The position numbers and the translations under genes were made by a program. A stretch of DNA of 64,000 nt from an uncultured Bacilli bacterium. GTDB taxonomy: Bacteria > Bacillota_I > Bacilli_A > RF39 > UBA660. The DNA lies in assembly GCA_947585665.1 (NCBI GenBank), contig CANPXE010000002.1, positions 1,820-65,819 of the forward strand, given 5' to 3'. Positions 18,287 through 45,698 of this stretch are shown piece after piece. The stretch's first letter is position 1, and every line of letters begins with the position of its first letter. The notes under the pieces are model-generated. The model saw only the letters and a program-made list of their open reading frames with translations. It was not told the origin of the DNA and did no database searches.

Positions 18287-18294
18287 TCCTTATA

Positions 18295-28422: not shown

Positions 28423-28782
28423 ACCTCCTTTTCATTATTTTTTTTAAATAAATAATAAATATAAAAAAGATATCATAATTTTAATGATATCTCAGCTATT
28501 TTAATTATAACATAATAATTAATTTTCATCATCTATTATTTTCTCTAGTTCAACACCAATCTTTTTAATTACCCTATAACTAAAGGATTTTCCATCATGA
28601 AATATTTTCTTTTATTAGACATAACTGTATTAATCAAATCATCTAGGAACCTATTTGTTATTTCACATTATACTGTTATAAAAAACCTTGGCTTTTTTGT
28701 TTTAAAATCCTCAATAGCATATGTTGTTCCACCAACTCTACTTTCGCTAGTAAGCATTGTTCTAGTTGGCGCATCTAAATTA

Positions 28783-29040
28783 TCAGGAAATGACATAACT
28801 TCCTTCTAAGTAAAAGTATGGTTCGCTATTTGCCTTAACTCTATTGATTTTTTTATTCCCCCTTAAGAGTGCAAATTTCTCTATTTTTTCTTTACTTAAG
28901 AAATATTTTTTATCTACTGATTCTTCTTCACGAATATTTCTTAGTGGATAAACTAAATCATAATCTACTTTTACTTTAACTATATAAATACCTCTATTTT
29001 TCATAATTACTGTATTATAAAAACTCCATTGCCTTTTCAA
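28783..29040 (-). CDS. Hypothetical ORF, probable gene remnant
   Basis: 85-aa ORF. Adjacent frames continue the coding-like sequence (FPDNLDAPTRTMLTSESRVGGTTYAIEDF), suggesting a degraded larger gene. Confidence 0.2.
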   Translation of the reverse strand: MKRQWSFYNTVIMKNRGIYIVKVKVDYDLVYPLRNIREEESVDKKYFLSKEKIEKFALLRGNKKINRVKANSEPYFYLEGSYVIS

Positions 29041-29136
29041 ACCAACGGAATTTTCTTCTTAAATTTAGATTTCTACCTTTATTCATCTATGTTCATCGAA
29101 CTTCTTCATAAAAAGAGTTCGAGTATATTACTTAAT

Positions 29137-29417
29137 GGCAGAGATAAGTGAATTGAACTCCCAACAATGATTTTGGAGATGTAGTCCCGAATTTCTTAAA
29201 TTGAATTGAAATGGCTTGAAATCAAGTAATTTCAAGGGTTTCCGAATTTCATCAGTTCATCAAAACTGGCACTTTTTTTTGAAATATTTTGAACTAATTG
29301 GCACAAACTTTTTTGACCCATTTTTTTGTGCCAATCGAGTTGTAGACCGCTAGAGTCACTCTTCGCAAAACCAGTGTTCATAAGGGTTTAATTAAGTTAA
29401 CATAATAATTTGTGCCA
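29137..29417. repeat. Structured intergenic repeat R, copy 1 (about 280 bp, 85-90% identical to copy 2)
   Basis: Aligns with 37630..37924; contains the cttgaaatcaag...atttcaag hairpin and the TTGGCACAAA ... TTTGTGCCAA decamers. Confidence 0.8.
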
Positions 29418-29430
29418 CTTAATTAATCCC

Positions 29431-29490
29431 TTTTTCATCCATATAATCTAATTGATTTCTTATATATCAATTCAAATTTATCACTTTTCA
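29431..29490 (-). pseudogene. Truncated 5' fragment (17 codons, MKSDKFELIYKKSIRLY) of the 152-aa gene found intact at 38153..38611
   Basis: Near-identical DNA to 38545..38602, including the start codon; it is joined directly to repeat R copy 1. Confidence 0.55.
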
Positions 29491-29514
29491 TAACCAACTC
29501 CTAAACTTCTTATT

Positions 29515-31314
29515 TTAATTATCAGTAATACACTCTAAAATATCTTTTTTTAAATACTTCATAATAGGTATAGTAACTAATCCATAAAAATATACAATTG
29601 ATATAAAAATAATTATTCCCCAATTAATTAAGGAAATATAAAAATTCCAATCAATAGATAATTTAATAATTAAACATAATATATTAAAAATTATACAAGC
29701 AAAGATAAAGGCTAATAATATTTCCGTCAAATAATCAATTAAAAAGATTAAATGAATACGATCATTTGATACACGATATAGTCTTAAATAACCAATTTGC
29801 CTTTTATTATAATATAATTCTAAAAGTATTTTACTAATCATAAAGACAAACATAAATAATATAAATACTAAACCAATCTCTAAATATATTTTCACATAAT
29901 TATAAATAGTATATTCTTTATTAGCTATAGTATTAAAATGATTTAAAAGAACAGAATTAAAAAATTTTACATAACCATCTTTGCTTTTCAAGTATATATC
30001 AATAATGTCATTCTTAGATATACTGATTATAATTGTTTTATCTTTGACTGCTGTCTTGATTTCTTTAATTTTGTTATAGGAAATAAAAATCGCAGGTTTT
30101 ATTTCATTAGTTTCTACATCAACAATATCAGTATATATTTCATTGTTATCCAATGTATAAACATCAGTACCACAAATAATACCTGATATAGTTAAAATAT
30201 TATCATCTATTTCGATTGTCTTACCAATTGCTTCTTCATTTTCTAATTGCATTTTATTAATAACAAATTCTTCATTAACTAATATTTCATCATCACTTTT
30301 AGGGAAATGTCCATATTTTATTAAATCTTGTTTTTGAAAATAAGAATCTTCAGCATCAAATAATGTATATGCTTTATAATCATCTTTAACTATATTGTAG
30401 TTAAAATACTCTTTTTCTATTTTGTAATCAATGTATGGTAAATCATCTTCTCGAATGTTTAAAACTTGAATTGGATATTTTTTAGCATAGTCTTTAATGG
30501 ATTCTTTTTTTAAGTTTTGAATAATAGAAATTCCACTAAAAAGTAATAAGAAGAAAAGTGTCATAACAATCATCAAAACAATTCTTTTTTCTTTGCGCCT
30601 TCTTACAAAAAGAAAGTCATATTTCGAAAAAGACGATTGTTCTTCAGTATTATTATCATTATTGTTATCATTTTTTTCATTTATTTCTTCCTTAACTAAT
30701 TTTAATCTACCAAAATCAATCTCATAAATACAATTAGCTATTTCATCATAAATATTCTTATGTGTAGCAATAACAATAATTTTATCTAAATTAATAATTT
30801 CTTTTAAGTAATCACGAAATATTTCAGCATTTTCTTTATCGAGAGAAGAAGTCGGTTCATCTAAAATTATTAACTTACTATCAAGAAGAAGAGCTCTTAT
30901 TAAAGAAATGCGTTGTCTCTCACCACCTGATATCTCTTCCGGTTTTTTATCTAATAATTTTTCAACATCAAACTTTTTAGCATACTCTTTAATCTTATCA
31001 ATATCATCTTTAATAAATAGCAAGTTCTCTTTAATGGTTAATTTTTTAAATAAATAACTCTTTTGAAAAACATAAGAAATGTTATTTTTTATTGTTTGTA
31101 AATCATCTCTATTCATCTTTTTAACATCCTTATTATTCCAATAATACTTACCTTCATAATTAGTATCTAGAAAAGATAAAATATTGAATAAAGTTGTTTT
31201 ACCACTACCACTTATTCCTTTAATGACATAAATATTTCCCTCTTGTAATTTTAGATTAATTTTATCTAAAACGATGTGATCAAAACTTTTAGTTATATTT
31301 TTTAGTTCAATCAT
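29515..31314 (-). CDS. MacB-type ABC transporter, fused ATPase-FtsX-like permease
   Basis: N-terminal Walker A GISGSGKTTLFNIL, ISGGERQR signature and LIILDEPTSSLD; then TM1, large extracytoplasmic domain and 3 C-terminal TMs. Confidence 0.7.
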   Translation of the reverse strand: MIELKNITKSFDHIVLDKINLKLQEGNIYVIKGISGSGKTTLFNILSFLDTNYEGKYYWNNKDVKKMNRDDLQTIKNNISYVFQKSYLFKKLTIKENLLFIKDDIDKIKEYAKKFDVEKLLDKKPEEISGGERQRISLIRALLLDSKLIILDEPTSSLDKENAEIFRDYLKEIINLDKIIVIATHKNIYDEIANCIYEIDFGRLKLVKEEINEKNDNNNDNNTEEQSSFSKYDFLFVRRRKEKRIVLMIVMTLFFLLLFSGISIIQNLKKESIKDYAKKYPIQVLNIREDDLPYIDYKIEKEYFNYNIVKDDYKAYTLFDAEDSYFQKQDLIKYGHFPKSDDEILVNEEFVINKMQLENEEAIGKTIEIDDNILTISGIICGTDVYTLDNNEIYTDIVDVETNEIKPAIFISYNKIKEIKTAVKDKTIIISISKNDIIDIYLKSKDGYVKFFNSVLLNHFNTIANKEYTIYNYVKIYLEIGLVFILFMFVFMISKILLELYYNKRQIGYLRLYRVSNDRIHLIFLIDYLTEILLAFIFACIIFNILCLIIKLSIDWNFYISLINWGIIIFISIVYFYGLVTIPIMKYLKKDILECITDN

Positions 31315-33257
31315 AATAGATCACTCTTTTCTTTAATTAAGTAAAACCAACCTTTTTTCTTGCGCGAATGGTTGAGAAAAAGACTTTCGATTAAGGCAAA
31401 AACGCCACTAACTATTAATAATTTTAAAATCCAATCAATACTTATCATAAATAGTGGATATGGAAGAAAGCCACCACTAGTAATAGTGTAATTTAATACT
31501 TTTGATAAAAGAATAGAACAAAAAGAAGATAATAAAATTATGAAAAACATATAAAGTAGGAAATATATTGAAGTAGCTGTTTTAACACTCATTTCACGAT
31601 AACCATAATATTCATAAATACTATAATTGTGCTCTGTATGGGCAAGTCTTGTTTTATGAATTTGATAATAAAAGATAAGTCCTAAAGCTAAAAAAGCAAT
31701 ACTTGTGGAAAAACACAATTGTTGAATTAATTCATCATTAACTCCAAATTCAACAAAATTATTAATAGGATCATTTAAAACAATAGGCGAATTAGAATTA
31801 TAGTCTTTACCTTTGTATTTATTATAAAAACTCATGAAATCTTTACTATTATTAAAGTAAACTGTTAGAGAGGTTGCTGGATAATTAGAATTTAATTCAT
31901 CACTTCCTAAAACATCATCTTGTAAATATTTTTCCATGTAACTATTACTTAAAAAATAATACCAATCATAGACATATTGACCGAGAGTAGCCCTCCAAAG
32001 TGTCTCATTATCTTCATCAATCTTATTAAAGATACCAACTATTTCAAATTCATCTTTACCATCAGGAAGATTAAGTTCTATTTTTTCACCGATTAAGTTT
32101 TTTATTTTACTTTCATCTAAATTTTGTAATTCTAAAGCTTCTTCATAGCCAATAATAATATCATTTTTGTCCTCAAAATAATGCCCATAAAGTAGTTTAC
32201 TATCGATGTCACCTAAATTATCTTTATGTTCAGGAAGCGTAATTATATCGGTTACAAAATCCGTTTGAATACTTGAATCATCATCTTCTTCATAAGAATT
32301 CATTGGAACATTCCTAATATAGTTATAAGTGACTTCAGAAACATCATAATTAGATAAAATACTATTACAATAGTCTTTTGTCTCAAGAGAACAAAATATT
32401 CCAGTTGCTTTTAAATCATTATTATAAATTAGTTGATTAATAAGTTTGGTATCATAGTCAGTACATGCAAAAAGAAGTAATAAAACAACGGAAAAAATAG
32501 TTGTAAAAAGAAATAATATTTTCTTTTCAAAACGAAACATTTGACGACATAAATATTTTAAAACGATAAAAGTTTCTTTAAAAAAACTATTTTTTCTTTT
32601 ATATTTAATTTTTTTAGATAAATCTACTTTTAAATCTTTATCTTTATATCGATCTAAATCATTGAAATCTATTTTTTTACATTCCAAAGAAAAGATAGTA
32701 CTATCATGACTAGCACAAATTACTAATGCTTTTTCTTTTAATTCATCAAGCATTTCATAAAAAATATCACGATTTTTCTTATCTAATGAAGCTGTTGGTT
32801 CATCTAGTAGAAATATCTTTTTATCTTTTAAAATATTACCAATTAAAGCAAATCTCTGTCTTTCTCCACCCGATAATTGATTAGGGAACTTTTTCAAACA
32901 GCGACTTAAATTAAACTTTTTAACTAAGTTATTAATTTCATCTTTATTTTTATTTGATTGTAATATTAAGTTTTCTTCTATGGTTAAATAATCAATAAAA
33001 TATGTATCTTGGGAAATATAAGCAATTTTATCTTGAATGTTATTGTAATTAACACATTTTTTATAAACATTACCATCATAAGCTATTTCTCCATCATCAA
33101 AGCTAACAATTCCTAAAAGGATTTGAAGAAGAGTTGTTTTTCCACTACCACTAATACCATAAAGAACATATAGACCTTTATCTTCAAATTTATAAGAGAA
33201 ATCTTTAAAAATAGTAACATCATTAAATTTCTTTTTGATATTTTTACATATAATCAT
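31311..33257 (-). CDS. MacB-type ABC transporter, fused ATPase-FtsX-like permease (paralog)
   Basis: GISGSGKTTLLQIL, LSGGERQR, FLLDEPTASLD, plus the same four-TM FtsX-like topology; overlaps the downstream gene by 4 nt. Confidence 0.7.
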   Translation of the reverse strand: MIICKNIKKKFNDVTIFKDFSYKFEDKGLYVLYGISGSGKTTLLQILLGIVSFDDGEIAYDGNVYKKCVNYNNIQDKIAYISQDTYFIDYLTIEENLILQSNKNKDEINNLVKKFNLSRCLKKFPNQLSGGERQRFALIGNILKDKKIFLLDEPTASLDKKNRDIFYEMLDELKEKALVICASHDSTIFSLECKKIDFNDLDRYKDKDLKVDLSKKIKYKRKNSFFKETFIVLKYLCRQMFRFEKKILFLFTTIFSVVLLLLFACTDYDTKLINQLIYNNDLKATGIFCSLETKDYCNSILSNYDVSEVTYNYIRNVPMNSYEEDDDSSIQTDFVTDIITLPEHKDNLGDIDSKLLYGHYFEDKNDIIIGYEEALELQNLDESKIKNLIGEKIELNLPDGKDEFEIVGIFNKIDEDNETLWRATLGQYVYDWYYFLSNSYMEKYLQDDVLGSDELNSNYPATSLTVYFNNSKDFMSFYNKYKGKDYNSNSPIVLNDPINNFVEFGVNDELIQQLCFSTSIAFLALGLIFYYQIHKTRLAHTEHNYSIYEYYGYREMSVKTATSIYFLLYMFFIILLSSFCSILLSKVLNYTITSGGFLPYPLFMISIDWILKLLIVSGVFALIESLFLNHSRKKKGWFYLIKEKSDLL

Positions 33258-33259
33258 AA

Positions 33260-34201
33260 TTATTTATCCCTATTTTCTTCAATTTTTTCAAATATTTGAA
33301 ATAACTCTTTATAGTCTGAATTGTCTTTTAAACTATCAAACTTTTTATCTAAAGAGAATTTTCCATTCTTTTTAATATCTTTTTCCATTTCTTTAATCGT
33401 GTTATAAATTTCTTTTTCTTTATCAGTTGCTTTGTTAGAAGCAATCTTATCTGTTAAATATGTACCATTTGAATATACATAATCAATTCTAACTTCTTCT
33501 ATATTGCCATAATTTAAAAGTAATCCAACTTGATAGTGATCTTCATTACTCTTAACTTTTGTTATTGAGCAAGTTTTAAGTGATATATATTTTCCAATTA
33601 TATCATCTGTTTTTTGATATTTTTTTGAATATGCATCATTCCATAATTTTACAATATCATCTTTTTCAAAATTAACAAATTTAATACTTTTTAAATCATC
33701 ATTATTTATTTTTCTCTCCCAATGTTCATTTACTAACAATTCATTTATTTCACCTAATTCATCAGTTTCTGTTTTTTTGCCATCTTTTGATTTACGTGAA
33801 TGTTCAAGCGTAACTGAACTTGATGGTATTTTAGATATGTGTCCATCTCCATCTATAAGTGTACTATAATTATCATCTAAGTGTTCGTATTTAATATTAC
33901 AACCTGAAAAATAATTATAATAAATATATTTTTCTTTTTCTTGAACACGATCAATAGTAATATAATAGAACCAACCATCTTCTTTTTCTAAATAGCTTCT
34001 TTTAACAACAGAACTTTCGGCAACTTTCTCTTCTTCTTCTCTAATTTTTTTCTCTCTTTGTTCTTTATCATAAACTGTCTTGATTTTATTTATGGAAAAT
34101 ATAATAATTGCGACTAAAAATATAATTATAAATACAAACATAATTTTTTGATTTAAACTCTTTTTTTTCGACATATTTTTTCTCCTCTTTTTATATAGCA
34201 A
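33260..34201 (-). CDS. Membrane-anchored extracytoplasmic protein (possible accessory component of the MacB-like exporter)
   Basis: 313 aa with an N-terminal basic tail, a single TM helix and a charged extracellular domain; ends 3 nt upstream of the ABC gene. Confidence 0.3.
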   Translation of the reverse strand: MLYKKRRKNMSKKKSLNQKIMFVFIIIFLVAIIIFSINKIKTVYDKEQREKKIREEEEKVAESSVVKRSYLEKEDGWFYYITIDRVQEKEKYIYYNYFSGCNIKYEHLDDNYSTLIDGDGHISKIPSSSVTLEHSRKSKDGKKTETDELGEINELLVNEHWERKINNDDLKSIKFVNFEKDDIVKLWNDAYSKKYQKTDDIIGKYISLKTCSITKVKSNEDHYQVGLLLNYGNIEEVRIDYVYSNGTYLTDKIASNKATDKEKEIYNTIKEMEKDIKKNGKFSLDKKFDSLKDNSDYKELFQIFEKIEENRDK

Positions 34202-34227
34202 CTTACTAAAAAGTTATACTATAAGAA

Positions 34228-34268
34228 TAAACAATAGCCATTTTGGTTGAAATGGCTATTGTTTTATA
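34228..34268. terminator. Hairpin terminator between convergently oriented units
   Basis: aacaatagccattt-ggttg-aaatggctattgtt perfect 14-bp stem. Confidence 0.45.
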
Positions 34269-34772
34269 TTAATCTACTCTTATTTCGTAATCGAACACTG
34301 CACCATTTGTTGTTGTTTTATCACCTGTTATTTTGTCAAGTGCTGCTGTTATATAAAGTTCACCAGTTGCGTCATTAGCAGAATCAATATTTCCTAAACC
34401 AGCTGTATATTCTTCATCCAATTTGATAGTATCTAAATCCAATCCTTTAAATGTTCCTATGTATCTTTTTACGAAATCATCAGCATTAGGATCTGCATCA
34501 TCTTCCATCAAATATATAATTATCTCTCTACCAGTTATTGGTTTTGCAACTCCTTCTCTCAAGTATCCTAAATTATCAAAAAATACATATGATTCAGATC
34601 CCTTTAAAGGTGCTGACTTAGATGTTAAATTGAATATTTTACCTGATGTTTTTTTACCTGCTATTGCTTCCGGACCTTTTTGCCATCCAGTAACTTGATT
34701 ATAAGCATATACATTAGATGTAACTAATAATAACATTGCAAAAATTCCTAAGCAAATTACAATTTTTTTCAT
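34269..34772 (-). CDS. Small secreted protein (signal peptide, 167 aa)
   Basis: N-terminal signal peptide ending VYAYNQ; acidic mature region; strong AGGAGG-type RBS. Confidence 0.4.
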   Translation of the reverse strand: MKKIVICLGIFAMLLLVTSNVYAYNQVTGWQKGPEAIAGKKTSGKIFNLTSKSAPLKGSESYVFFDNLGYLREGVAKPITGREIIIYLMEDDADPNADDFVKRYIGTFKGLDLDTIKLDEEYTAGLGNIDSANDATGELYITAALDKITGDKTTTNGAVFDYEIRVD

Positions 34773-35026
34773 TTTTTCCTCCTTATTATTATATTTATTT
34801 TAACAACATTTTTATAGTGGCCACAATTTAAACTAAAATGGAGTTAACATATTTTGATGAAATACAAATTGTTATTTATGATAGTTTCCTATTTACAATA
34901 ATCATTTAATTAAATACATCTAAAATAGCACAATAATATCAAACTTACTATTTATAAGAAAACTAACATTAACAATTTATTTTTCACTTTATATTCTTTA
35001 ATGGTATTTAATTGTAGTTTAAATTT

Positions 35027-35779
35027 TTAAAGTGTAATATCAACACCTTCCATTTCGTCATACACTCCAGTAGCTGCACCATAAAACTTGAATACATTTC
35101 CATACCCAGCACTATCTATTACGAATAGTTGACTATTTGACAGACTTATTTGTTTTTTTGCATGTTGATATGATGCATATACCTTCCCACCTTTAGCAAG
35201 TGTATATTTTTGTTCAATAGTAACATTACTACCAGACGGCAACTTTACAGATGTTCCAAAACCATTTACAAATCCTTTGGCATCGTAAACAAAATCATAT
35301 CCTTCGCTAGAAGAAAATTTTGTAACTATTGAATCACTAATTAAATTTGTTCCAGAAAAACGTGCACCAATTATGTCATAGCTTCTTACATTTGGCAATG
35401 ATGTCCATGTACATTTTACAATGATTGCACAATTTTTGGAGCAACTCTTAACTATTGTTAATGTTTTTCCATTTTGATTGAGTGAAGAAGTCATTGGTGA
35501 TATTCCATAATCATAAATAGTCTTAATTTCAACATCGCTATTATCAATATTCAAATCTTGAATCCAATTAAGATCATCAATAGTCATTTTTTCAAAATAG
35601 TTATTACCATAAAATTCATTAATGAAATTATATGTTTTTGTTGAAACCTTAACTCCATTTTCATTAGTATAATAATCTTTACTTTGTGCATGAACTCCAT
35701 CGGTATAAATAAATATTAAAAATGTAATCATTATAATTAATGCATGACCATATTTTCTTCTCATATTTCCTTCTTTCAA
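35027..35779 (-). CDS. Secreted three-Cys protein of about 250 aa, cassette unit A
   Basis: Signal peptide (GVHAQS cleavage); conserved KSCSKNCAIIVKCTW block shared with paralog 42961..43722 at about 50% identity. Confidence 0.45.
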   Translation of the reverse strand: MKEGNMRRKYGHALIIMITFLIFIYTDGVHAQSKDYYTNENGVKVSTKTYNFINEFYGNNYFEKMTIDDLNWIQDLNIDNSDVEIKTIYDYGISPMTSSLNQNGKTLTIVKSCSKNCAIIVKCTWTSLPNVRSYDIIGARFSGTNLISDSIVTKFSSSEGYDFVYDAKGFVNGFGTSVKLPSGSNVTIEQKYTLAKGGKVYASYQHAKKQISLSNSQLFVIDSAGYGNVFKFYGAATGVYDEMEGVDITL

Positions 35780-35895
35780 ACCAATGTTAATTTAAAAATT
35801 TAAAAAAATAAAGGACTTATTCAGTCCATATGTTATTGAAACCTATTTTTTTTAAATTAAATATACATTATATAATAATATTTGATAAATACATA

Positions 35896-37005
35896 TTAAC
35901 TATCAAAATCTATTTTACTCAAATAATTATCACTAAACTCTTTTATTTTTTTATCATCACATTTATACATGATACATTCCTTCTTTTGAAGATCATAATA
36001 AAATTCTTCAATTATATCACCTGCTTGATTTATACTACTATATGACAAATCTACTGGATGTGTATAACTATATCTTTTTATGATGCCATCTTCTTGTTCT
36101 TCTACAATATAAGTTTTAACATCTGGATAATATTCCTGTTTTATACTTTTATTATCATTATTAGTTTCCAAATAATAACAATTATCGTCATCATTATATT
36201 TAAAATTTTTCATAATATAATTAGGCACATTAACATCTTCTACATAATTGACATCTTCTTTTAGTTTATTATGTTTCTTGAAAAAAATATTATTATTAGA
36301 ATATTCTTTTGATAGTTTTAATTTTATAATTGATACTTCATCATCTAATTCAATTTTTAAATATAAATTAGATACTAAATACTTTAAATCCTTATATTCC
36401 ACGCTCGATTCTGAAAAGTCCAATACATCAAAACTTATTACCCCGTTACCATAGAATAAAACATTTTTATTGTCGCCTTTTTCATAGTACAATTCAAAGT
36501 TAACATCATCAGTTTGTAAATTTTGAACATTTCCAAGTTGAATGTAAAGTTTTTCATGTGATACAATCATTAATCCATTATTTATAACATAATTATTTTG
36601 ACTACCTTCAATTTCATATACAGTTATAGAATTATAATTATTTATAAAATAATATGATAAAAATAAAATTGTTAAAGAAATAATTATTAACAAACTAAAA
36701 ATTAAATATTTTTTAAATTTAATACTTTTTTTCATAATATTTGCCGTCATGCTATTAATAGTTTTTATGTTGCTTTTATTTTTTCTTTCACCAAGCATTA
36801 ATTCATAAATTGTTATTTCAAAAATATCACTTAATTTTAATAAAACTTCTATACTAGGATTATTTATTCCACGTTCCCACTTTGAAACTGTTTCTCTTTC
36901 AACAAACAAAAGTTTTGACAACTGCTCCTGTGTCAAGTTTTTTTCTCGCCTTAATTCAGATATAAAATGCCCAATTTTTTTATAATCTAATTGCAAAATA
37001 ATCAC
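35896..37005 (-). CDS. Membrane-anchored XRE-family transcriptional regulator (HTH-TM-extracellular sensor domain), unit A
   Basis: N-terminal HTH_XRE (KNLTQEQLSKLLFVERETVSKWERGINNPSIEVLLKLSDIF), a single TM (YLIFSLLIIISLTILFLSYYFI), and about 250 aa outside. Confidence 0.65.
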   Translation of the reverse strand: MIILQLDYKKIGHFISELRREKNLTQEQLSKLLFVERETVSKWERGINNPSIEVLLKLSDIFEITIYELMLGERKNKSNIKTINSMTANIMKKSIKFKKYLIFSLLIIISLTILFLSYYFINNYNSITVYEIEGSQNNYVINNGLMIVSHEKLYIQLGNVQNLQTDDVNFELYYEKGDNKNVLFYGNGVISFDVLDFSESSVEYKDLKYLVSNLYLKIELDDEVSIIKLKLSKEYSNNNIFFKKHNKLKEDVNYVEDVNVPNYIMKNFKYNDDDNCYYLETNNDNKSIKQEYYPDVKTYIVEEQEDGIIKRYSYTHPVDLSYSSINQAGDIIEEFYYDLQKKECIMYKCDDKKIKEFSDNYLSKIDFDS

Positions 37006-37559: not shown

Positions 37560-37590
37560 AACAAAAAAATCTAGTAAGAACTACTAGATA
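37560..37590 (-). terminator. Hairpin plus T-run (minus strand) between repeat R copy 2 and the xreS-A promoter region
   Basis: atctagta-agaa-ctactagat palindrome followed on the minus strand by TTTTTTTGTTTT. Confidence 0.4.
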
Positions 37591-37629
37591 ATATATGATA
37601 AATCGCTACAAAAAGCGAACATTTGTTTT

Positions 37630-37924: not shown

Positions 37925-37934
37925 AAATAAATAA

Positions 37935-37975
37935 AAAAAGAGAGAATCTACTCATTTGTAGATCCTCTCAAATAT
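37935..37975 (-). terminator. Rho-independent terminator after the 152-aa gene operon
   Basis: gagaggatctac...gtagattctctc stem followed on the minus strand by TTTTTTTATTT. Confidence 0.45.
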
Positions 37976-38152: not shown

Positions 38153-38611
38153 TCAACAACTTTTAGCTAGTATCAAATTAATATCATTCGAATCAATAAT
38201 ATTTTGTATGCGACAATATTCATTATCTATTAAACTAATATTTTCATTACACTTTTCAAACACTCCAGTAATTTCAAATAGTTCATTATCTTTTATACGA
38301 GATACTGAAAGTCCACATTCATATAAAACCACTTCTTTTTGAGGCAATAAATTGTAATTATCATCAAGTTCAATTGGCATTAAATGGTTTACTTTAAATT
38401 GATAAATTATAAAAGTATATTCATCAATATTTATAGTTTTAGATTTAATTATTGAATCTTTTATATTATCAATGCTGACTTTATTACTTTTTTTGTATAA
38501 ACGACTGATATAATTATCAAACTTTAAATCGTATTTAAAATACAAACTATATAATCTAATTGATTTCTTATATATCAATTCAAATTTATCACTTTTCATA
38601 ACTAGCTCCAA
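38153..38611 (-). CDS. Hypothetical cytoplasmic protein (152 aa), terminal gene of cassette unit B
   Basis: ORF with RBS. Its 5' end is duplicated as a fragment at 29431..29490. Confidence 0.4.
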   Translation of the reverse strand: MELVMKSDKFELIYKKSIRLYSLYFKYDLKFDNYISRLYKKSNKVSIDNIKDSIIKSKTINIDEYTFIIYQFKVNHLMPIELDDNYNLLPQKEVVLYECGLSVSRIKDNELFEITGVFEKCNENISLIDNEYCRIQNIIDSNDINLILAKSC

Positions 38612-38629
38612 ATACTCTTTTTATTTAAA

Positions 38630-39352
38630 CTATACATTTTCATTAATTTTTTGTATCAATTCTTCTTTTAATTTTATGTATTTATTTTGTTGCTTCTCAC
38701 ATATCATATCCTTATTATTACAATCACTATATATATAATCATATTTCATTATTTCTTTCATTGTAAGACTACCATTTTCGTATCCAAAAAGCAAATTAGA
38801 TTGTCTAGAAATATTAAAATGCCCATATTCTACACTAGAGAATACAAATGTATTCTTAACGCTAGGATTTGGAGCTTTTTTTACAAATACTACATACTTA
38901 TCACCTAGAGTAAGAGGAGTCATTCCTCCAGAATAATCTATATATTCATTAGATATTAAATTTACTAAATCATAGATTTTTATATCATTACCCTCATAAA
39001 TACTATGATTACTATCATTTTTGTATATTTTTAATACTTTTGCATTATTAATCAAACTATTTCCATATATTAAAGGTTTATTCTGAACTATTATTTTAAA
39101 TACATAATCTGACTTGTCAAACAAATCATCAATATTACTTATTAATGAATCATTAATAAAAAAACCTTTTAATCTAGAATAATGTCTATACATCGACTCA
39201 GTAGATGTAATAAAGTAATCAGTATTTGAAATATAATCATCGTAACTTATGTGATTAGTTACTTTTTTACCAATGAAAATCATAATAAAGAAAAAAAATA
39301 CAAAAATTAAACAAGAAAATCTTAATATTTTTAATATGTCAACTTTTTTCAT
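38630..39352 (-). CDS. Membrane-anchored extracytoplasmic protein (240 aa)
   Basis: N-terminal TM helix then a soluble domain; overlaps the ABC ATPase stop by 14 nt. Confidence 0.35.
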   Translation of the reverse strand: MKKVDILKILRFSCLIFVFFFFIMIFIGKKVTNHISYDDYISNTDYFITSTESMYRHYSRLKGFFINDSLISNIDDLFDKSDYVFKIIVQNKPLIYGNSLINNAKVLKIYKNDSNHSIYEGNDIKIYDLVNLISNEYIDYSGGMTPLTLGDKYVVFVKKAPNPSVKNTFVFSSVEYGHFNISRQSNLLFGYENGSLTMKEIMKYDYIYSDCNNKDMICEKQQNKYIKLKEELIQKINENV

Positions 39353-39992
39353 TTCGATTTAACACCTTACCATCAACAACATAAAAAATCTTATCACACA
39401 AATAATTTAAATCCTCTTTATTATGGCTTGCCAATAACACTATTTTTTTCTGTTTTTTAAGTTTCAAAATTATTTCATGTAACTTTTTTATTGATGTTTC
39501 ATCTAAACCATTTGTTGGTTCATCTAAAATAATAATTTGTTGATTTTCCATTATTGCTTGTATAATTCTTAACTTTTGTTTCATTCCAAGGGAATATTCT
39601 TTAAATTTTTTATCCTTTGCTTCTAATAAGTCAAACTCTTGTAATAAACTACAAATGTATTGCTCATTATCTTTATTGTTAATTTTATATAACATATCTA
39701 GATTTTGAAATCCTGTTAGATGAGGATAAAAATCAGGATTTTCGATAAGGATTCCAAAATTTCTTAAATCATATTCATCATTAATTATCGAAGTGTCATC
39801 TATTAAAACATCACCAGTTGTTGGATATATCAAACTTGATATTGCTCTAAAAAGCATTGTCTTACCTGATCCATTTCTTCCATAGAATCCATATATTTTC
39901 CCACTTGATAAACTTAAATTAACATTATCTAAAATTACTTTATTTTTAATAATTTTTGTGTAATTTTTAACTACTATTCTCATCTTTAACAC
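39339..39992 (-). CDS. ABC transporter ATP-binding protein
   Basis: Walker A GRNGSGKTMLFRAI, signature SLGMKQKLRI and Walker B IIILDEPTNGLDE. Confidence 0.8.
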   Translation of the reverse strand: MLKMRIVVKNYTKIIKNKVILDNVNLSLSSGKIYGFYGRNGSGKTMLFRAISSLIYPTTGDVLIDDTSIINDEYDLRNFGILIENPDFYPHLTGFQNLDMLYKINNKDNEQYICSLLQEFDLLEAKDKKFKEYSLGMKQKLRIIQAIMENQQIIILDEPTNGLDETSIKKLHEIILKLKKQKKIVLLASHNKEDLNYLCDKIFYVVDGKVLNRNEKS

Positions 39993-40638
39993 CTCCTAAA
40001 TCTATTTTTATGTATAAAGATTTTAATATAAAAATTAATATGATTATAATAAAAAAGTCCACATAATTAATATTATAATTTACATATAATGAAACAAAAG
40101 GAATATAAAAGCATTTGAATGAATTTAATAATACTAAAACAGTGCAAGTCACAATAATAATAGAATATATAAAATTGTCAATAACTAATGCTCCTATAAC
40201 AATTATCATAATCAATAAAAATGTTTCAATGATATACTTAAAGTAAAATATCAAAAAGATTGTTTTTGTTTCTATTGGAAGTTGAAAAATTATTGTAAAT
40301 AAAATAATTTGCACTAAAATTGTAAATGTCCCTAATATAATATGATTTTTAATATTATCCTTAATTATGCTAAAATAATACGTTTTACGATTTTTATATC
40401 TAGGATTCATCTTTATTAGCTTATAATACATATTTTTAGATATTAAAAATATATTTAATATTACAGGAATAAACCAAATAAAGTTATAAATGTTGTTCTT
40501 AGAAAAGTCAATTATAATTTTATAATATGATACATTCATCCAAGATCGCATTTCTAACAAAAATGGAATTTTCATATAACATGTAACTAATATTATTGTC
40601 AAATATATAAATTTTTTCCCATTACTCATTATTATCAT
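39967..40638 (-). CDS. Polytopic membrane protein (putative ABC-2-type permease subunit)
   Basis: 223 aa with about 6 predicted TM helices; sits in an operon with the ABC ATPase. Confidence 0.4.
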   Translation of the reverse strand: MIIMSNGKKFIYLTIILVTCYMKIPFLLEMRSWMNVSYYKIIIDFSKNNIYNFIWFIPVILNIFLISKNMYYKLIKMNPRYKNRKTYYFSIIKDNIKNHIILGTFTILVQIILFTIIFQLPIETKTIFLIFYFKYIIETFLLIMIIVIGALVIDNFIYSIIIVTCTVLVLLNSFKCFYIPFVSLYVNYNINYVDFFIIIILIFILKSLYIKIDLGGVKDENSS

Positions 40639-41305
40639 CTTTTTTCATCATAAGATCTTTTTTAGAATATAGCAAAAGCATTACATTTACCAAAATAATA
40701 TTTAAGATAGTAATGCAAGTAAATATGGTAATACTGTTCGAATAAGTATAATTAATAATATACATATTATTAAAGCTTATATTTAGATTGTTTAAGTAAA
40801 AAAAATTTATATGATCTAAAGGAAAATCTATGCAAATTACAATAAATAGAAAAAATATAATAGAAATAAATCTTTTATCAATAAATATGTCAATTATCAT
40901 AATTATTAATGAAATAGTCAAGCTAACAATTAAGTAGTTTACAATTATAATTAGTATATTTAATAAATATTTAAATGAAACAGGTGCATTTAAAATAACT
41001 ATTACTAAATTAAATACTAAAAAAAATACAGTATTTAAAATAAATTCATAAATTAATGTAGTAATAATTAACTTAATTCTATTTTTATATCTAGGATATT
41101 TAGTTGTAATAAAAATATATTTATATACTAAATAATTAAAAATCAATGAAACAACAATCAAGTAATATCTGAGAGGTGGATTGCTTAAATATCCTAAAAA
41201 ATTTTCAAAAAAATTATTTTTTAAATAATATGAAATAAAAATTGAAACAATACAATTTAATATAAATATTAAAGTTAATTGTTTATTTCTCACTATATAT
41301 TTCAT
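40622..41305 (-). CDS. Polytopic membrane protein (putative ABC-2-type permease subunit)
   Basis: 227 aa, multi-TM; overlaps neighbouring genes at both ends. Confidence 0.4.
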   Translation of the reverse strand: MKYIVRNKQLTLIFILNCIVSIFISYYLKNNFFENFLGYLSNPPLRYYLIVVSLIFNYLVYKYIFITTKYPRYKNRIKLIITTLIYEFILNTVFFLVFNLVIVILNAPVSFKYLLNILIIIVNYLIVSLTISLIIMIIDIFIDKRFISIIFFLFIVICIDFPLDHINFFYLNNLNISFNNMYIINYTYSNSITIFTCITILNIILVNVMLLLYSKKDLMMKKDDNNE

Positions 41306-42114
41306 AAATAATCCTTCTTCCTAATTTGAAGAAGTAATAAGACTATGCAAGATAAAAGTAGGGTTACATATAATAATATTGCATTATATATAGAAAAGGA
41401 TGAAAAAGGTTGTAATTGTCCAATAATAGAATATTTATCTAATTTAAAAATTGATAATATTAATTCATCACCAATCAAAGCTAAAAATGGGAATACATAT
41501 ATAATGATACGTTGTTTTATAAAAAAAGAAATAGCATAAGATAGTGAAGATAGAAGACTAATCAAAAAAGATGTATGAGCAGATATAGACACAATGAACC
41601 AAAAAGGACTAATTAGTCTTAAATTATCAATAAAATAATATTTGTTACTACTTAAGTAAAAACCAGGGCTTTGGAAATATGTTAAAGCATTGCCACTACC
41701 ATATATTTTAGCAAGAACATAATAGTTTAACATAAATCCACAAAAAACAATTACAAATGTGGTGATAAGAATTAAAAAAAATCTCACAAATATTAAAGTT
41801 TTCTTATTTAATCTTGAATAAAGGATATTAGTAATTTTTTTATTATTTTCAAGCCAATTTATATCCGAGAAAATCGTTGAACATAATATTGGTAAAGCTA
41901 TAATAATAACTAGATTAATATTTACATCTAAATTATATAGAATAAATAGATATTCCGCTTTATAACCAATTTCACAAAACAAGTGTAAATTATAATTATT
42001 ATGATAAATAACTAAAAATATATGAACTAGATTAATTAATAATATACCCATTATAGCAAAATATAATTCCTTTTTTCTATATAGATGTTTCAAACTATAT
42101 ATTAATTCCTTCAT
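41302..42114 (-). CDS. Polytopic membrane protein (putative permease subunit)
   Basis: 270 aa, multi-TM. Confidence 0.4.
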   Translation of the reverse strand: MKELIYSLKHLYRKKELYFAIMGILLINLVHIFLVIYHNNYNLHLFCEIGYKAEYLFILYNLDVNINLVIIIALPILCSTIFSDINWLENNKKITNILYSRLNKKTLIFVRFFLILITTFVIVFCGFMLNYYVLAKIYGSGNALTYFQSPGFYLSSNKYYFIDNLRLISPFWFIVSISAHTSFLISLLSSLSYAISFFIKQRIIIYVFPFLALIGDELILSIFKLDKYSIIGQLQPFSSFSIYNAILLYVTLLLSCIVLLLLQIRKKDYL

Positions 42115-42140
42115 ACGAATTCTCCTCTTCTTAATTCAAT

Positions 42141-42168
42141 GTAAACACCAACACTTGTTGGTGTTTAC
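42141..42168. terminator. Strong 12-13-bp hairpin between the secreted-protein gene and the permease genes
   Basis: gtaaacaccaac-actt-gttggtgtttac; lacks a clear T-run, so it may be an attenuator or stabiliser. Confidence 0.3.
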
Positions 42169-42179
42169 ATATTAAATGA

Positions 42180-42623
42180 TTAATTATAGTTAATGTATCC
42201 ATTAGATACACCTTTTTTTGTCAATTTCCATACATGATTTCTAGCTTTAGTTCTCATTTTAGTTCCTATAGAAAATGCTCTTTCATAATTTAAATATCCA
42301 GTATCATCATTTTCCAAGTTCATAATTGTTCCATTTGGTGAATAAACATATTCTTTTTCTTTAGAATCAGTATCTTTATAAACATATCCACCAGCATAGT
42401 ATGTAACTTCGTCAATATTTTGAGCATCAACTATAATTTCACCTTTATTTGTTTTCGTTGCTATAACACCATCACCACGATCAGCTGTTGTTGTAACCCA
42501 ACCTTGGCGTGCAGGTATATCAAAGTAAAACCAAAGCCAATCAGCTGCATGTACACTAACCATTGTTAGTATAGCTACTAATGAAATAGAAACAAAAACA
42601 ATCTTTTTCATATGCTTCTTCAT
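42180..42623 (-). CDS. Small secreted protein (signal peptide, 147 aa), unit B
   Basis: Signal peptide ending VHAADW; GGAGG RBS. Confidence 0.4.
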   Translation of the reverse strand: MKKHMKKIVFVSISLVAILTMVSVHAADWLWFYFDIPARQGWVTTTADRGDGVIATKTNKGEIIVDAQNIDEVTYYAGGYVYKDTDSKEKEYVYSPNGTIMNLENDDTGYLNYERAFSIGTKMRTKARNHVWKLTKKGVSNGYINYN

Positions 42624-42658
42624 ATTATCACCTCCTTTCTTAACATTCTTTGATTTAA

Positions 42659-42689
42659 TCGTTCATAAATCAAAGCAATTTATGAACGA
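42659..42689. promoter_or_regulatory. Perfect 12-bp inverted repeat TCGTTCATAAAT-N7-ATTTATGAACGA, candidate operator
   Basis: Located 36-66 nt upstream of the 42623 start codon, in the promoter region of the small secreted-protein gene. Confidence 0.4.
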
Positions 42690-42843
42690 TTTCATATAGT
42701 AAATATACCTACAATAAAAATTTATCAGTAGATTGATTATCAATAATACATTTTTATTAACATTCTATTTTCTTAAAAACAATTCAAAATTTATTGTTAA
42801 TCGTCCTTTTCCTTTCAACTTCATCATAATACTAAATATTTAA

Positions 42844-42903
42844 AAAAATAAAGAGATGAATCATCACATAAAGGTTATATTCAAAATGTGATTTCTCATC
42901 TCA
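42844..42903 (-). repeat. 59-bp terminator-like repeat, copy 1 (downstream of the secreted 253-aa gene)
   Basis: Identical to 43741..43799; on the minus strand it forms agagatgagaaatcacat...atgtgatgattcatctct plus a T-run. Confidence 0.6.
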
Positions 42904-42960
42904 TCATTATTTTTATTTTATGACAATAGTTAATTATATTTTTTATTAACATAAATAAAC

Positions 42961-43722
42961 TTATAATGTCATATTTAAACCATCCATTTGATCAAATACA
43001 TTTAAAGCTGCACCATAAAATTTAAATACACTACCATAACCAGTTGCAGTTATCGTATACATTTTACTAGTTTCCAAAGTAATACTACTTTTTGAATGTT
43101 GATATGTAGCAAATACTTTTCCTCCTTTTGATAATACATACTTTTGTTCAACTGAAATATTTGTTCCTGATGAATTTAATTTTACTGATACACCAAAACC
43201 ATTGCTTGCTTGTTTTAAGTTAGTAAAATATTCAGTTCCTGCGCTGGATGTAACTTTTGTAGTTATAGTATTACTTGCTAAACTAGTATCTAAAAAACGA
43301 GCTCCAATAACATCATAACTCTTTACACTTGGATTTGATATCCATTTGCAATTTACAATAATCGTGCAGTTTGTAGAACAACTTTTAGCTATTGTAATTT
43401 TCCTATTATATTGAGTAATTTCAGTAGCTAATGGCATAATATTCGAATTATTATATGATTTGATTTCTACTTCGCTATTATCAATGTTCAAATCTTTAAT
43501 CCAATTATATTCTTCTAATGACATTGTTTCAAAATAATCTTTTCCGTAAAAATCGCTTATAAACTGATATTCCTTCTTTGAAACTACTATACCATTGCTA
43601 TTTACAAAACAATCAATAGTTTGTGCCGACACAAATTGAATAGAAATACAAATAATGCAAACAATAAATAGAAAAATCTTTTGCTTTAATTTTTTCATAT
43701 TTTTTCCTCCTTCCAATTCCAT
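42961..43722 (-). CDS. Secreted three-Cys protein of about 253 aa, cassette unit B
   Basis: Signal peptide (VSAQT); KSCSTNCTIIVNCKW block; paralog of 35027..35779. Confidence 0.45.
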   Translation of the reverse strand: MELEGGKNMKKLKQKIFLFIVCIICISIQFVSAQTIDCFVNSNGIVVSKKEYQFISDFYGKDYFETMSLEEYNWIKDLNIDNSEVEIKSYNNSNIMPLATEITQYNRKITIAKSCSTNCTIIVNCKWISNPSVKSYDVIGARFLDTSLASNTITTKVTSSAGTEYFTNLKQASNGFGVSVKLNSSGTNISVEQKYVLSKGGKVFATYQHSKSSITLETSKMYTITATGYGSVFKFYGAALNVFDQMDGLNMTL

Positions 43723-43740
43723 CGTAATATTTTTAAGTCA

Positions 43741-43799
43741 AAAAATAAAGAGATGAATCATCACATAAAGGTTATATTCAAAATGTGATTTCTCATCTC
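43741..43799 (-). repeat. 59-bp terminator-like repeat, copy 2 (between the XRE-TM gene and the secreted 253-aa gene)
   Basis: Identical to 42844..42903. Confidence 0.6.
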
Positions 43800-43809
43800 T
43801 TGTTTATTT

Positions 43810-44919
43810 TTAAGTAAGCATACTTAAATATTCATTTTTAAAATATTCTATCAAATCTTTATTACATTCACCAGTAATGCATTCATTACTATCCAACACA
43901 TAAACAAATTCTTTTATAATCTTTCCATTATCACTAGTTTCTGAGTAAGTTATATCTGGCTTAGAATATGTAAAACTACTTCTATACCCATCAAATACTT
44001 CCTCTACCATGTACACATTAGCATCTACAAAATAGGTATACTTAATTGTTTTATCTTCTCTTTTTTCTTCTAAATAATAAGAATTATCATTGCTGTTAAA
44101 ATCAAAATTATCTTTTATATATGTAGGAATGTTATCATATAAATCATTAATGTCATCTTGTTTCAAAGATGATTCATTTTGTGGAATTATTCTATTATTA
44201 GAATATGATTTAGATAGTTCCAATTTTAAAACTGACATTTCATTATCATTAAATATAATTTCTAAAAACATATTTGAAATTAAATATTTTAAATCACCAT
44301 ACTTAAATTCTGAATCTTTATAATCAGAAACATATGATCCTCCCAAGTCATTTCTCTCATAAAAAGTAATTGTTTTATTACCTTTTGTGTAATATAACTT
44401 TTCAGATATAATATTAACGCCATTATTATTTTCAATATTTCCCAAATTTATATAAACTTTTTCTCTAGATATAACCATTATTCCATTGTGAATAGAAAAA
44501 TTATTGTCATCATAATTAATATCATAAACCATAATTGAATTAAAATTATTTATGAAATAATATGATAAAAAAGATAAAAATAAAATTAAGATTATAATTA
44601 TAGTTATGGATAGATACTTTTTAAAAACTACATTTTTTCGTAGTGCACCAACTGTAACATCACTAATACTTTCAATATTCTCTTTATTTATTCGTTCGCC
44701 TAATATCATTTCATTAATAGTAATTCCAAATATTTTAGACATTTTTATTAATGTTTCAGTGTTTATACTATTTTCACCAAGTTCCCATTTTGATATAGTG
44801 GTTCTATCAACAAATAATTTTTTTGCTAGATCTTCTTGGGTCATATTTTTTTCTTTTCTTAGTTCTACTATAAATTTTCCTATTTTTTTATAGTCCATAT
44901 AATCCATTTTAAACATCAC
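43810..44919 (-). CDS. Membrane-anchored XRE-family transcriptional regulator (HTH-TM-extracellular domain), unit B
   Basis: HTH_XRE (KNMTQEDLAKKLFVDRTTISKWELGENSINTETLIKMSKIF), single TM, about 250-aa ectodomain; about 55% identical to 35896..37005. Confidence 0.65.
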   Translation of the reverse strand: MMFKMDYMDYKKIGKFIVELRKEKNMTQEDLAKKLFVDRTTISKWELGENSINTETLIKMSKIFGITINEMILGERINKENIESISDVTVGALRKNVVFKKYLSITIIIILILFLSFLSYYFINNFNSIMVYDINYDDNNFSIHNGIMVISREKVYINLGNIENNNGVNIISEKLYYTKGNKTITFYERNDLGGSYVSDYKDSEFKYGDLKYLISNMFLEIIFNDNEMSVLKLELSKSYSNNRIIPQNESSLKQDDINDLYDNIPTYIKDNFDFNSNDNSYYLEEKREDKTIKYTYFVDANVYMVEEVFDGYRSSFTYSKPDITYSETSDNGKIIKEFVYVLDSNECITGECNKDLIEYFKNEYLSMLT

Positions 44920-44962
44920 CTACCAAAACTACATATATTTTAACATCAAACAATAACAATTA

Positions 44963-45250
44963 TCAACGATTACTATCATTGTTAAATTTTCTGTCTACAA
45001 AAAATTCTCTAATGTCAACTTCTAAAACACGAGAAATTCTATATAAAACTGCTATACTAAATGACTGAGCTACTTTTCTTGATTCAATATTACCAATAAG
45101 ACTAGTACTTAAATCACACAATTCAGCCAATTTTTCTTGAGTCATCTTTCCATAATAACTATATTTGCTATTATTATGTAATCTAAAATATTTAATATTT
45201 CTACTAACAATATCATAAATATATCTATCATCATTTGGATCAAAATTCAT
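44963..45250 (-). CDS. Small XRE-family HTH regulator, unit B
   Basis: 95 aa; identical to the unit A copy except for the C-terminal tail. Confidence 0.7.
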   Translation of the reverse strand: MNFDPNDDRYIYDIVSRNIKYFRLHNNSKYSYYGKMTQEKLAELCDLSTSLIGNIESRKVAQSFSIAVLYRISRVLEVDIREFFVDRKFNNDSNR

Positions 45251-45545
45251 TCAATATCACATATTTGTATTTTCTCACTTATTGAAGAAAATATTTATAT
45301 TCATATAATGATAAATCTTATATGATAAGTGATAAAAAAGAAGTCAGTATTTTTTATTACTAACATTTACTAAATTTTTATAGTTATTATTTTCATATTC
45401 TTTCATATAGCAAATGCATAATACATGAGTACTATTATACTAACTCTAAAAAGGGTTATTGTAAATTATTTTGAAAATAAAAAAATCTAGTAAAAACTAC
45501 TAGATGTATATGATAAATCGCTATAAAAAGCGAACATTTGTTTTG

Positions 45546-45586
45546 GCAGGGGATAAGTGAATCGAACACTTATCTAAGGTTTTGGA
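45546..45586. repeat. Repeat R, truncated copy 3 (first about 40 bp only)
   Basis: ggcaggggataagtgaatcgaacacttatctaaggttttggaga matches the start of copy 2, then homology ends. Confidence 0.7.
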
Positions 45587-45698
45587 GACCCCTATTTTAC
45601 CATTAAACTAATCCCCTATGCGTTTGATTATACCACAATAATTATGCAAATACAATAACACATTTTTATTTTTAACATAATCTATTATAGGTGATTAT

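Follow-up and report, generated by a model that had tools for sequence, protein, structure and literature searches.

A 64,000-nucleotide (nt) stretch from an uncultured Bacilli bacterium of the RF39 lineage (UBA660; GenBank assembly GCA_947585665.1, contig CANPXE010000002.1, positions 1,820 to 65,819), referred to here as the window, carries on its minus strand two adjacent gene units, termed B and A. These units are very probably two integrase-less islands that are stacked head to tail at the 3' end of a tRNA-Trp gene and that have a shared backbone and differing cargo. The invariant core of the system is a gene pair encoding a membrane-tethered regulator, designated XRE-TM, which combines an XRE-type helix-turn-helix (HTH) domain with a transmembrane (TM) segment, and a secreted protein of about 250 amino acids (aa). 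The explanation that we favor as a whole, and to which we give about an even chance, is that on these integrase-less islands the regulator-partner pair controls secreted effectors along with ATP-binding cassette (ABC) systems for immunity or efflux.

Arrangement of the two units behind tRNA-Trp

Read along the minus strand from 45617 to 29136, the region consists of the tRNA-Trp gene, a leader (U), unit B, a noncoding segment (R), a partial tRNA-Trp copy, a second U, unit A, a second R, and a degenerate partial tRNA-Trp copy, beyond which unrelated DNA begins. The first-pass annotation, made from the sequence alone, had placed the two minus-strand units at 45250..38153 (B) and 37335..29431 (A), and both were found there. 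It had missed the complete tRNA-Trp gene, which was recognized by Rfam (64.4 bits) and by ARAGORN. Repeat mapping showed that all three boundaries share one segment, the tRNA from its anticodon loop through its CCA end. As in elements that target tRNA genes, each unit is bounded by direct repeats of this 3' part, and the partial copies at the unit boundaries are the signature of successive site-specific integrations. The backbone of both islands consists of a partial tRNA copy, the 293-nt leader, a small XRE gene, the cargo, a 152-aa gene, and the 260-nt R with its TTGGCACAAA motifs. The backbone features are as follows.

45544..45617 (−), complete tRNA-Trp(CCA); its 3' part, 45545..45588 (anticodon loop to CCA), is copy 1 of the att-like core
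45251..45543 (−), leader U_B, 293 nt, with the tRNA terminator hairpin, a promoter-like site, and the 5' untranslated region of the small XRE gene
44963..45250 (−), small XRE protein of unit B, 95 aa, HTH_3 domain
38153..38611 (−), 152-aa cytoplasmic protein, conserved 3' backbone; 92.7% nt identity to the 163-aa gene of strain L093/L097 (see below)
37940..37969 (−), intrinsic terminator of unit B
37674..37932 (−), R_B, conserved and noncoding, with four TTGGCACAAA copies in both orientations; candidate recombination arm
37630..37673 (−), partial tRNA-Trp copy 2, anticodon loop to CCA, 44 nt, 97.7% identical to the tRNA
37336..37629 (−), leader U_A, the second copy
37066..37335 (−), small XRE protein of unit A, 89 aa
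29435..29497 (−), 20-codon remnant of the 152-aa gene, fused to R
29180..29427 (−), R_A, the second R copy, with three TTGGCACAAA motifs
29136..29179 (−), partial tRNA-Trp copy 3, degenerate or mosaic, partly like the tRNA-Trp type found in L031 and at the end of the integrative element in L005 (see below)

In a profile along the two units, DNA identity between A and B was 92 to 98% from the tRNA segment to about 45000, the 3' end of the small XRE gene, and then fell abruptly to about 55 to 65%. Leader U_B was 93.5% identical to U_A. At the other end of the units, the first 74 nt of the 152-aa gene were 91% alike and R was 87 to 91% alike. The near identity of the 5' module and of R that had been noted at first sight was therefore borne out. 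The proposal that the 152-aa gene, a terminator, and R close each unit holds for unit B; unit A retains R, with no terminator and only the 20-codon remnant of the gene. Seven of the eight exact TTGGCACAAA matches in the window fall within R, which folds better than shuffled sequences (z = −3.2); the sole match in an Rfam scan of R and the leader was a below-threshold hairpin of the microRNA type.

Between these conserved ends, unit B encodes in order the small XRE protein (95 aa), XRE-TM (369 aa), the secreted protein sec253, the small secreted protein ssec147, three permeases with six TM segments each, an ABC ATPase, an N-terminally anchored 240-aa protein, and the 152-aa protein, followed by the terminator. 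Unit A encodes the small XRE protein (89 aa), XRE-TM (369 aa), sec250, ssec167, an N-terminally anchored 313-aa protein, two ATPase-4TM fusions of 648 and 599 aa, and the 152-aa stub. All-against-all BLASTP revealed just three paralogous gene pairs between the units, namely, the small XRE proteins (97.7% aa identity), the XRE-TM proteins (48.6%), and the secreted proteins of about 250 aa (49.0%). The latter two values are slightly lower than the 50 to 55% estimated earlier. No similarity was detectable in the same comparison between ssec147 and ssec167, between the 240-aa and 313-aa anchored proteins, or between the permeases of A and B, and the ATPase domains were 27 to 33% identical, the level that is ordinary among ABC proteins. 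Therefore, the ordered gene set that had been described for both units is shared by position and predicted type, but it is homologous for the first three genes only.

An assembly artefact, in which the apparent tandem duplication would be a collapsed or expanded repeat, could be virtually discounted. Many metagenome contigs do break at the tRNA and leader repeats, but an artefact of this kind would yield identical copies, whereas the two units carry different cargo and are about 60% identical in nt sequence. Moreover, the independent contigs L103 (ERZ27060014, 12.9 kb) and L104 (ERZ27249426, 9.9 kb), from two other metagenome assemblies, were collinear with the window across the B-to-A junction at 99.8% identity, and contig L100 extends out of unit A into the flanking genes at an identity of at least 99.8%. 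These contigs refute the artefact, and the tandem arrangement reported in the first-pass annotation is real.

Relatives of the pair were collected in a survey of 78 species-level loci (relatives and additional contigs carry L numbers here), and related elements that bear an integrase were found to use tRNA-Trp as their target. In L005, an integrative and conjugative element (ICE) that encodes VirD4, VirB4, TrbL, PrgI, and a tyrosine integrase contains a cassette of the unit B type. The cassette encodes the pair of XRE-TM and secreted protein as well as a small HTH protein, a small secreted protein, three permeases, and an ATPase. A 46-nt partial tRNA-Trp follows the integrase gene of this ICE at a distance of about 270 nt; it has the same boundary, and its sequence matches the 3' part of the L031 tRNA-Trp exactly. 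In L045, an integrase homolog is followed by a partial tRNA-Trp and then by the pair. A full tRNA-Trp gene lies just upstream of the pair in L049 and L051, and the pair also adjoins tRNA-Trp in L031, L032, and L036. Large serine recombinases are encoded 1 to 5 kb downstream of the pair in L013, L020, L026, and L027.

The same position is occupied by other cargo in another strain. In strain L093/L097, the same tRNA, a leader 97.6% identical to U_B, and an identical small XRE protein are followed by a third cargo allele, whose XRE-TM protein has 368 aa and whose secreted protein has 247 aa. In this allele (segment 2798..11180), two sets lie behind the single regulator pair, the first with a 169-aa small secreted protein and an 820-aa ABC-FtsX fusion, and the second, which resembles that of unit A, with 168-aa and 294-aa proteins and two MacB-type fusions; the 163-aa gene of this strain is the counterpart of the 152-aa gene listed above. 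Past the 163-aa gene, L097 encodes a 159-aa protein and an N6_N4 DNA methyltransferase. Contig L086 (Logan SRR27728187; positions 1..5113 aligned with window positions 45064..38573) carries a deletion allele in which 43513..42140 is missing and, with it, ssec147 entirely and sec253 for the most part. XRE-TM (96.8% nt identity) and the whole transporter set (99.9% nt identity) are retained, and the right-hand end of the deletion coincides with the end of the hairpin after ssec147. At least three cargo alleles and one deletion allele exist behind an identical small XRE protein in one species, and two alleles are stacked in one genome. This variation and the link of the module to ICEs make the locus a convenient starting point for study.

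The first-pass annotation had explained the region by an ancient duplication of an ancestral unit in place, after which the copies diverged and gene conversion recently homogenized the 5' module and R. This origin would account for the tandem layout, for the identical order of the first three genes, and for flanks that are 87 to 98% identical compared with about 60% for the paralogous genes. However, the unit B pair resembles the pair of the foreign ICE in L005 (55% and 64%) more than it does its neighbor in unit A (48.6% and 49%), and sec250 of unit A has its closest relative in L026 (55%). The downstream halves are nonhomologous, and each has orthologs elsewhere: the whole cargo set of unit B is collinear with that of L020 at 29 to 53% identity, and the whole set of unit A is collinear with that of L010 at 35 to 39%. 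Partial tRNA copies are present at every boundary. Since the cargo has orthologs in other genomes, since relatives ride on ICEs and recombinase-bearing elements, and since a third allele is found on this backbone in a different strain, duplication in situ is not supported, and we consider it very unlikely. The sequence relationships agree with elements that integrated in tandem or exchanged cassettes on a common mobile backbone, and not with local duplication. The array would have formed through successive site-specific integration, or through cassette exchange between related elements, and the small XRE protein would be the backbone's own repressor.

Some results weigh against the island interpretation. 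No integrase or excisionase was found in the window, either by tblastn with the L005 integrase or as a recombinase domain among the open reading frames (ORFs) scanned, and present-day mobility would require an integrase in trans. R has no match in the L005 ICE. In strain L097, neither R nor a partial tRNA was found after the 163-aa gene within the 1 kb available, and for this reason the island ends are not proven recombination sites.

The XRE-TM regulator and its secreted partner

The core pair is represented in the window by the following genes.

43810..44919 (−), XRE-TM_B, 369 aa: cytoplasmic HTH, TM segment at 102-120, and 250-aa ectodomain of two beta-rich domains
35896..37005 (−), XRE-TM_A, 369 aa
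42961..43722 (−), sec253 of unit B: Sec signal, small helical N-domain, and beta-sandwich resembling adhesin-type immunoglobulin (Ig) domains
35027..35779 (−), sec250 of unit A

The description of both XRE-TM proteins as 369-aa proteins with an HTH_3 domain (E values of 4e-16 and 8e-14) and one TM segment at about residues 100 to 120 proved correct. With HTH_3 at residues 15 to 70, a single hydrophobic segment at 100 to 120, and a folded C-terminal region of 250 aa, they have the makeup of transmembrane one-component regulators. Their assignment to membrane-tethered one-component regulators adjoining ABC transporters, a class reviewed in PMC10269533, was likewise upheld.

The secreted proteins have, as stated before, lengths of 253 and 250 aa, signal peptides, and a conserved three-Cys block, which reads KSCSxxCxxxxxC. 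The structure of sec253, predicted with a pLDDT of 90, comprises a small helical N-terminal domain and a beta-sandwich, possibly of the CnaA/DEv-IgG type. In a fold search, a check proposed in the first-pass annotation, the best structural matches of the secreted protein were the ligand-binding Ig domains of Gram-positive adhesins and pilins, such as the collagen-binding MSCRAMM proteins. A profile search of the family against the PDB gave no match at E values up to 1, and the family has no Pfam or NCBIfam model. The proteins end in ...GLNMTL and ...GVDITL, with neither an LPXTG sorting signal nor a hydrophobic tail, and no LysM, SLH, or other signal for wall anchoring was found in the mature protein of 220 aa. 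The polar residues S135, D137, Q208, H209, and S219 of sec253 are invariant, and together with the CxxxC turn they suggest a defined site.

A HMMER search of 1.84 billion representative proteins recovered 986 clusters of the secreted family at E values up to 1e-3 and 260 at E values up to 1e-30. The best 150 clusters all were stand-alone proteins of about 240 aa or fragments thereof, and the only assemblies in which the family was seen are those of uncultured gut Bacilli, "Tenericutes," and Erysipelotrichaceae. Immediately upstream of the secreted gene is the XRE-TM gene in 66 of the 69 species-level loci whose sequence extends far enough, and in 79 of 85 by tblastn, while the ABC and small secreted genes come and go; it is for this reason that the regulator and the secreted protein are taken as the invariant unit. 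The small XRE protein was considered as a general third component and rejected. Most of the upstream ORFs of about 80 aa in other genomes are unrelated to it and, as read from their sequences, look SpoVIF-like; small HTH genes are confined to few loci, most of which belong to mobile elements.

In 70 pairs, the secreted protein diverged in step with the ectodomain (r = 0.82; partial r = 0.67 after correction for the HTH domain) and far less closely with the HTH domain (partial r = 0.23), a correlation that could stem from shared rate variation. This co-divergence is no more than suggestive of a partnership between secreted protein and ectodomain. In the mechanism that we propose, the secreted Ig-like protein would bind the XRE-TM ectodomain, alone or loaded with an external ligand, according to the logic of ToxR/ToxS, and binding would set the activity of the membrane-bound regulator on adjacent promoters.

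Cargo genes and the function of the module

Behind the pair, the units carry the following cargo genes and hairpins.

42843..42915 (−), long hairpin with T-run after sec253, 73 nt; 96% direct repeat of 43740..43812 after XRE-TM_B
42180..42623 (−), ssec147, orphan small Sec-secreted protein
42140..42169 (−), hairpin with a 12-bp stem between ssec147 and the ABC genes, read from the sequence; candidate attenuator
38630..42114 (−), transporter set of unit B: three 6-TM permeases (270, 227, and 223 aa), ABC ATPase (217 aa), and N-anchored 240-aa protein
34269..34772 (−), ssec167, small secreted protein unrelated to ssec147; ortholog at the equivalent position in L010 (37%)
34229..34264 (−), hairpin with a 15-bp stem after ssec167
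29515..34201 (−), transporter set of unit A: N-anchored 313-aa protein and two MacB-type ATPase-permease fusions (648 and 599 aa); collinear orthologs in L010

The composition of the export systems, with a split ATPase and three 6-TM permeases in unit B and two ATPase-4TM fusions with an N-terminally anchored 313-aa protein in unit A, agreed with the initial description. Collinear orthologs of the unit B set were found in L020, L018, L027, and L008. The unit A fusions have the features of MacB/FtsX (type VII) transporters: ABC_tran matches with E values of 2e-26 and 5e-32, a first TM segment at 247-265, an extracellular loop of 215 to 245 aa, and three or four TM segments. The Pfam match to FtsX was weak (E value of 0.0019 for the 599-aa fusion and none for the 648-aa fusion).

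Only one homolog cluster of ssec147, at 49% identity, was found among 5.8 billion clusters, and a distant ortholog occupies the equivalent position in L020. Comparison of the collinear orthologs indicated that ssec147 and ssec167 are each co-inherited with their own ABC type, and in both units a strong hairpin separates the small secreted gene from the ABC genes. Over the related loci, more than 15 families of small secreted proteins with no BLAST-level similarity to one another occupy this one conserved position, and several of them end in a similar ...YN strand. In L015, L025, L041, and L055, the small secreted protein is replaced by a secreted matrixin-like zinc metalloprotease of about 205 aa (HExxHxxGxxH motif; Peptidase_M10 E value of 8.5e-10). 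A perfect palindrome with 14-bp arms, AATCGTTCATAAAT-N7-ATTTATGAACGATT, lies at 42655..42690 on the minus strand, about 35 nt upstream of the ssec147 ribosome-binding site, and could be an operator or a 5' untranslated-region hairpin.

The module most likely serves bacterial competition or envelope defense. By analogy with ToxR/ToxS-like sensing, we infer that the pair may control the neighboring genes. The small secreted proteins would act as proteinaceous antibacterial or surface-active effectors, and the ABC systems would give the producer immunity or efflux; this pairing of effector and matched transporter, for loci that have both, is put forward tentatively and at somewhat less than an even chance. 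In its favor are the sequence diversity of the small secreted proteins at one position, the near-orphan status of ssec147, the co-inheritance of each such protein with its ABC type, the hairpins ahead of the ABC genes, and the L086 allele. Other results run counter to this explanation. Scans of all unit proteins with Pfam, NCBIfam, and PADLOC recognized only HTH and ABC ATPase domains, plus the weak FtsX match, and no unit protein matched a bacteriocin, immunity, or toxin family, including Lactococcin_972 and DUF1430. Among 56 loci with at least 4 kb of downstream sequence, judged by crude ORF criteria, an ABC transporter was present in 17, a small signal-peptide protein was present in 18, and neither was present in 32 (about 57%). 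Because most loci carry the pair alone, the pair must also have a role of its own, for which no toxin would be needed. In addition, the deletion allele of L086 is represented by a single short-read contig.

The main rival is a sensing and resistance module of the BcrR/Bce-like kind, directed at external antimicrobials, in which XRE-TM and the Ig-like binder would detect a peptide or protein antibiotic and induce the ABC system, with the small secreted proteins as decoys or accessory binders. The regulator is indeed linked to ABC types known from peptide resistance in Firmicutes (ABC-2, MacB/FtsX, and, in L013, a BceB-like FtsX permease of 720 aa), L086 has lost secreted genes but neither the regulator nor the ABC set, and the family scans detected no toxin signature. 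This rival accounts for the transporters, but it gives no reason why a hypervariable orphan Sec-secreted protein should be co-inherited with each ABC type and lie ahead of it together with a hairpin of its own; nor does it explain the two sets in tandem in L093, and most pair loci have no ABC transporter at all. We consider it unlikely. If the pair were instead a regulator with a regulated surface or colonization factor, an Ig-like adhesin for host or glycan, the ABC sets and small proteins would be passengers. The structural matches to collagen-binding MSCRAMM and pilin domains, the occurrence of the pair alone in most genomes, and the large size of the family together with its restriction to gut-type Bacilli are consistent with such a factor, but the mature protein has none of the wall-anchoring signals that were searched for, and its divergence is tightly coupled to that of the regulator ectodomain; this alternative appears distinctly unlikely. 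We regard with similar doubt the idea of a self-signaling or kin-discrimination system, in which the 25-kDa Ig-like protein, once released, would be read back by the ectodomain of its own regulator. The pairs would diversify into specificity types in the manner of peptide pherotypes, each type would turn on a polymorphic protein toxin and an ABC immunity set of its own, and the system would spread among gut Bacilli on tRNA-Trp-targeting elements. The preferred reading remains a regulator-partner pair that would control secreted effectors and their ABC partners.

Neighboring genes and known systems

Other genes in the window were recorded alongside the two units. Directly past the third partial tRNA copy are broken ORF pieces of 85 and 42 aa (28668..29040, minus strand) with no Pfam match, and just beyond the distal partial tRNA lies a gene for a 582-aa protein (26674..28422, minus strand), whose match to DUF4365 was weak and subthreshold, which had no PADLOC match, and whose exact sequence was absent from the contig index. 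A 320-aa protein (13086..14048, minus strand) fuses an XRE HTH_3 domain to an ABC ATPase; followed by ABC-2 permeases of 537 and 525 aa, it forms a second XRE-linked ABC system of different design (9877..14048, minus strand). Genes for an AMP-binding enzyme, a pyridoxal phosphate-dependent decarboxylase, and an MBOAT acyltransferase lie together at 16464..20978 (minus strand), apparently as a dlt-like surface-modification cluster. On the other side of the units, a gene at 47128..49125 (plus strand) encodes a 665-aa protein with a signal peptide, a VWA domain, repeated C-terminal modules, and a C-terminal hydrophobic anchor, which looks like a pilus tip or adhesin protein; in strain L091, this whole gene is missing between the amidase and TrkH genes.

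Among known systems, ToxR/ToxS, TcpP/TcpH, and PsaE/PsaF are transmembrane regulators with a co-encoded extracytoplasmic partner (PMC10269533). XRE-TM resembles ToxR in having a cytoplasmic DNA-binding domain, a single TM segment, and an extracytoplasmic sensor domain, and its partner gene, like toxS, is the next gene downstream and is nearly always co-inherited. The differences are equally clear. The DNA-binding domain here is an XRE/Cro-type HTH and not an OmpR winged helix, only XRE-type families having been matched; the partner, with an Ig-like fold and a Sec signal that looks cleavable, differs from ToxS, which is membrane anchored and lipocalin-like; the hosts are Gram-positive-type gut Bacilli; and the extracytoplasmic domains have no sequence or fold similarity to those of the known systems.

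The resemblance to BcrR, which had been suggested at the outset, held at the level of logic only. Like BcrR-BcrABD, which senses bacitracin and confers resistance to it in Enterococcus faecalis, the units combine a membrane-bound XRE one-component regulator with an adjacent ABC transporter, often on mobile DNA. However, BcrR has four TM helices and no large ectodomain, whereas XRE-TM has one TM segment and a 250-aa ectodomain. The operon differs as well, in that no BcrD/UppP domain was found among the unit genes and in that an obligatory secreted partner and an orphan secreted protein are present.

Integrase-less elements of the cis-mobilizable element (CIME) type adjoin ICESt1/ICESt3 in Streptococcus thermophilus, where elements accrete in tandem. 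The units of the window are similar in that they lie head to tail at one attachment site with att repeats between them, carry neither integrase nor conjugation genes, and have related full ICEs that use the same kind of target. They differ in that the target is the 3' end of tRNA-Trp and in that the window contains neither a resident ICE nor an integrase; mobilization here is putative.

Polymorphic bacteriocin and immunity loci with Sec-dependent protein bacteriocins and ABC immunity, such as the lactococcin 972 cluster, LanFEG transporters, and the pneumococcal blp locus (PMC8538875), likewise encode a small Sec-secreted protein followed by an ABC transporter, and downstream of conserved regulatory genes they have a mosaic content that varies from strain to strain. 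A further likeness is the natural allele of the present system that keeps the transporter without the secreted genes. Unlike in those loci, no protein here matched Lactococcin_972, DUF1430, or another bacteriocin or immunity family, and the regulators are not a peptide-pheromone two-component system; the antibacterial role is putative. A lactococcin 972 cluster was tried as an identification and rejected, as neither the window proteins nor nine small proteins and large permeases of related loci matched Lactococcin_972 or DUF1430/TIGR01654; in related loci with a large permease and an ATPase, the permease was of the FtsX type and not DUF1430.

No paper describing the pair was found in a literature search, in agreement with the initial judgment that the combination is not a described system. 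We rate as new the regulator-partner pair with polymorphic secreted-protein and ABC cargo on tandem integrase-less islands, as a variation on known kinds. The pair brings into view a large unnamed family of secreted proteins of about 240 aa, with about 1,000 clusters at 50% identity, that is nearly always paired with a membrane-tethered XRE regulator and is confined to uncultured gut Bacilli. Should the proposed mechanism fail, the region would still illustrate clearly how integrase-less islands accrete in tandem at a tRNA gene. If the mechanism is true, the pair would be a Gram-positive, XRE-type counterpart to ToxR/ToxS-like regulator-partner sensing, and the islands would be a source of unrecognized protein antimicrobials with matched ABC immunity.

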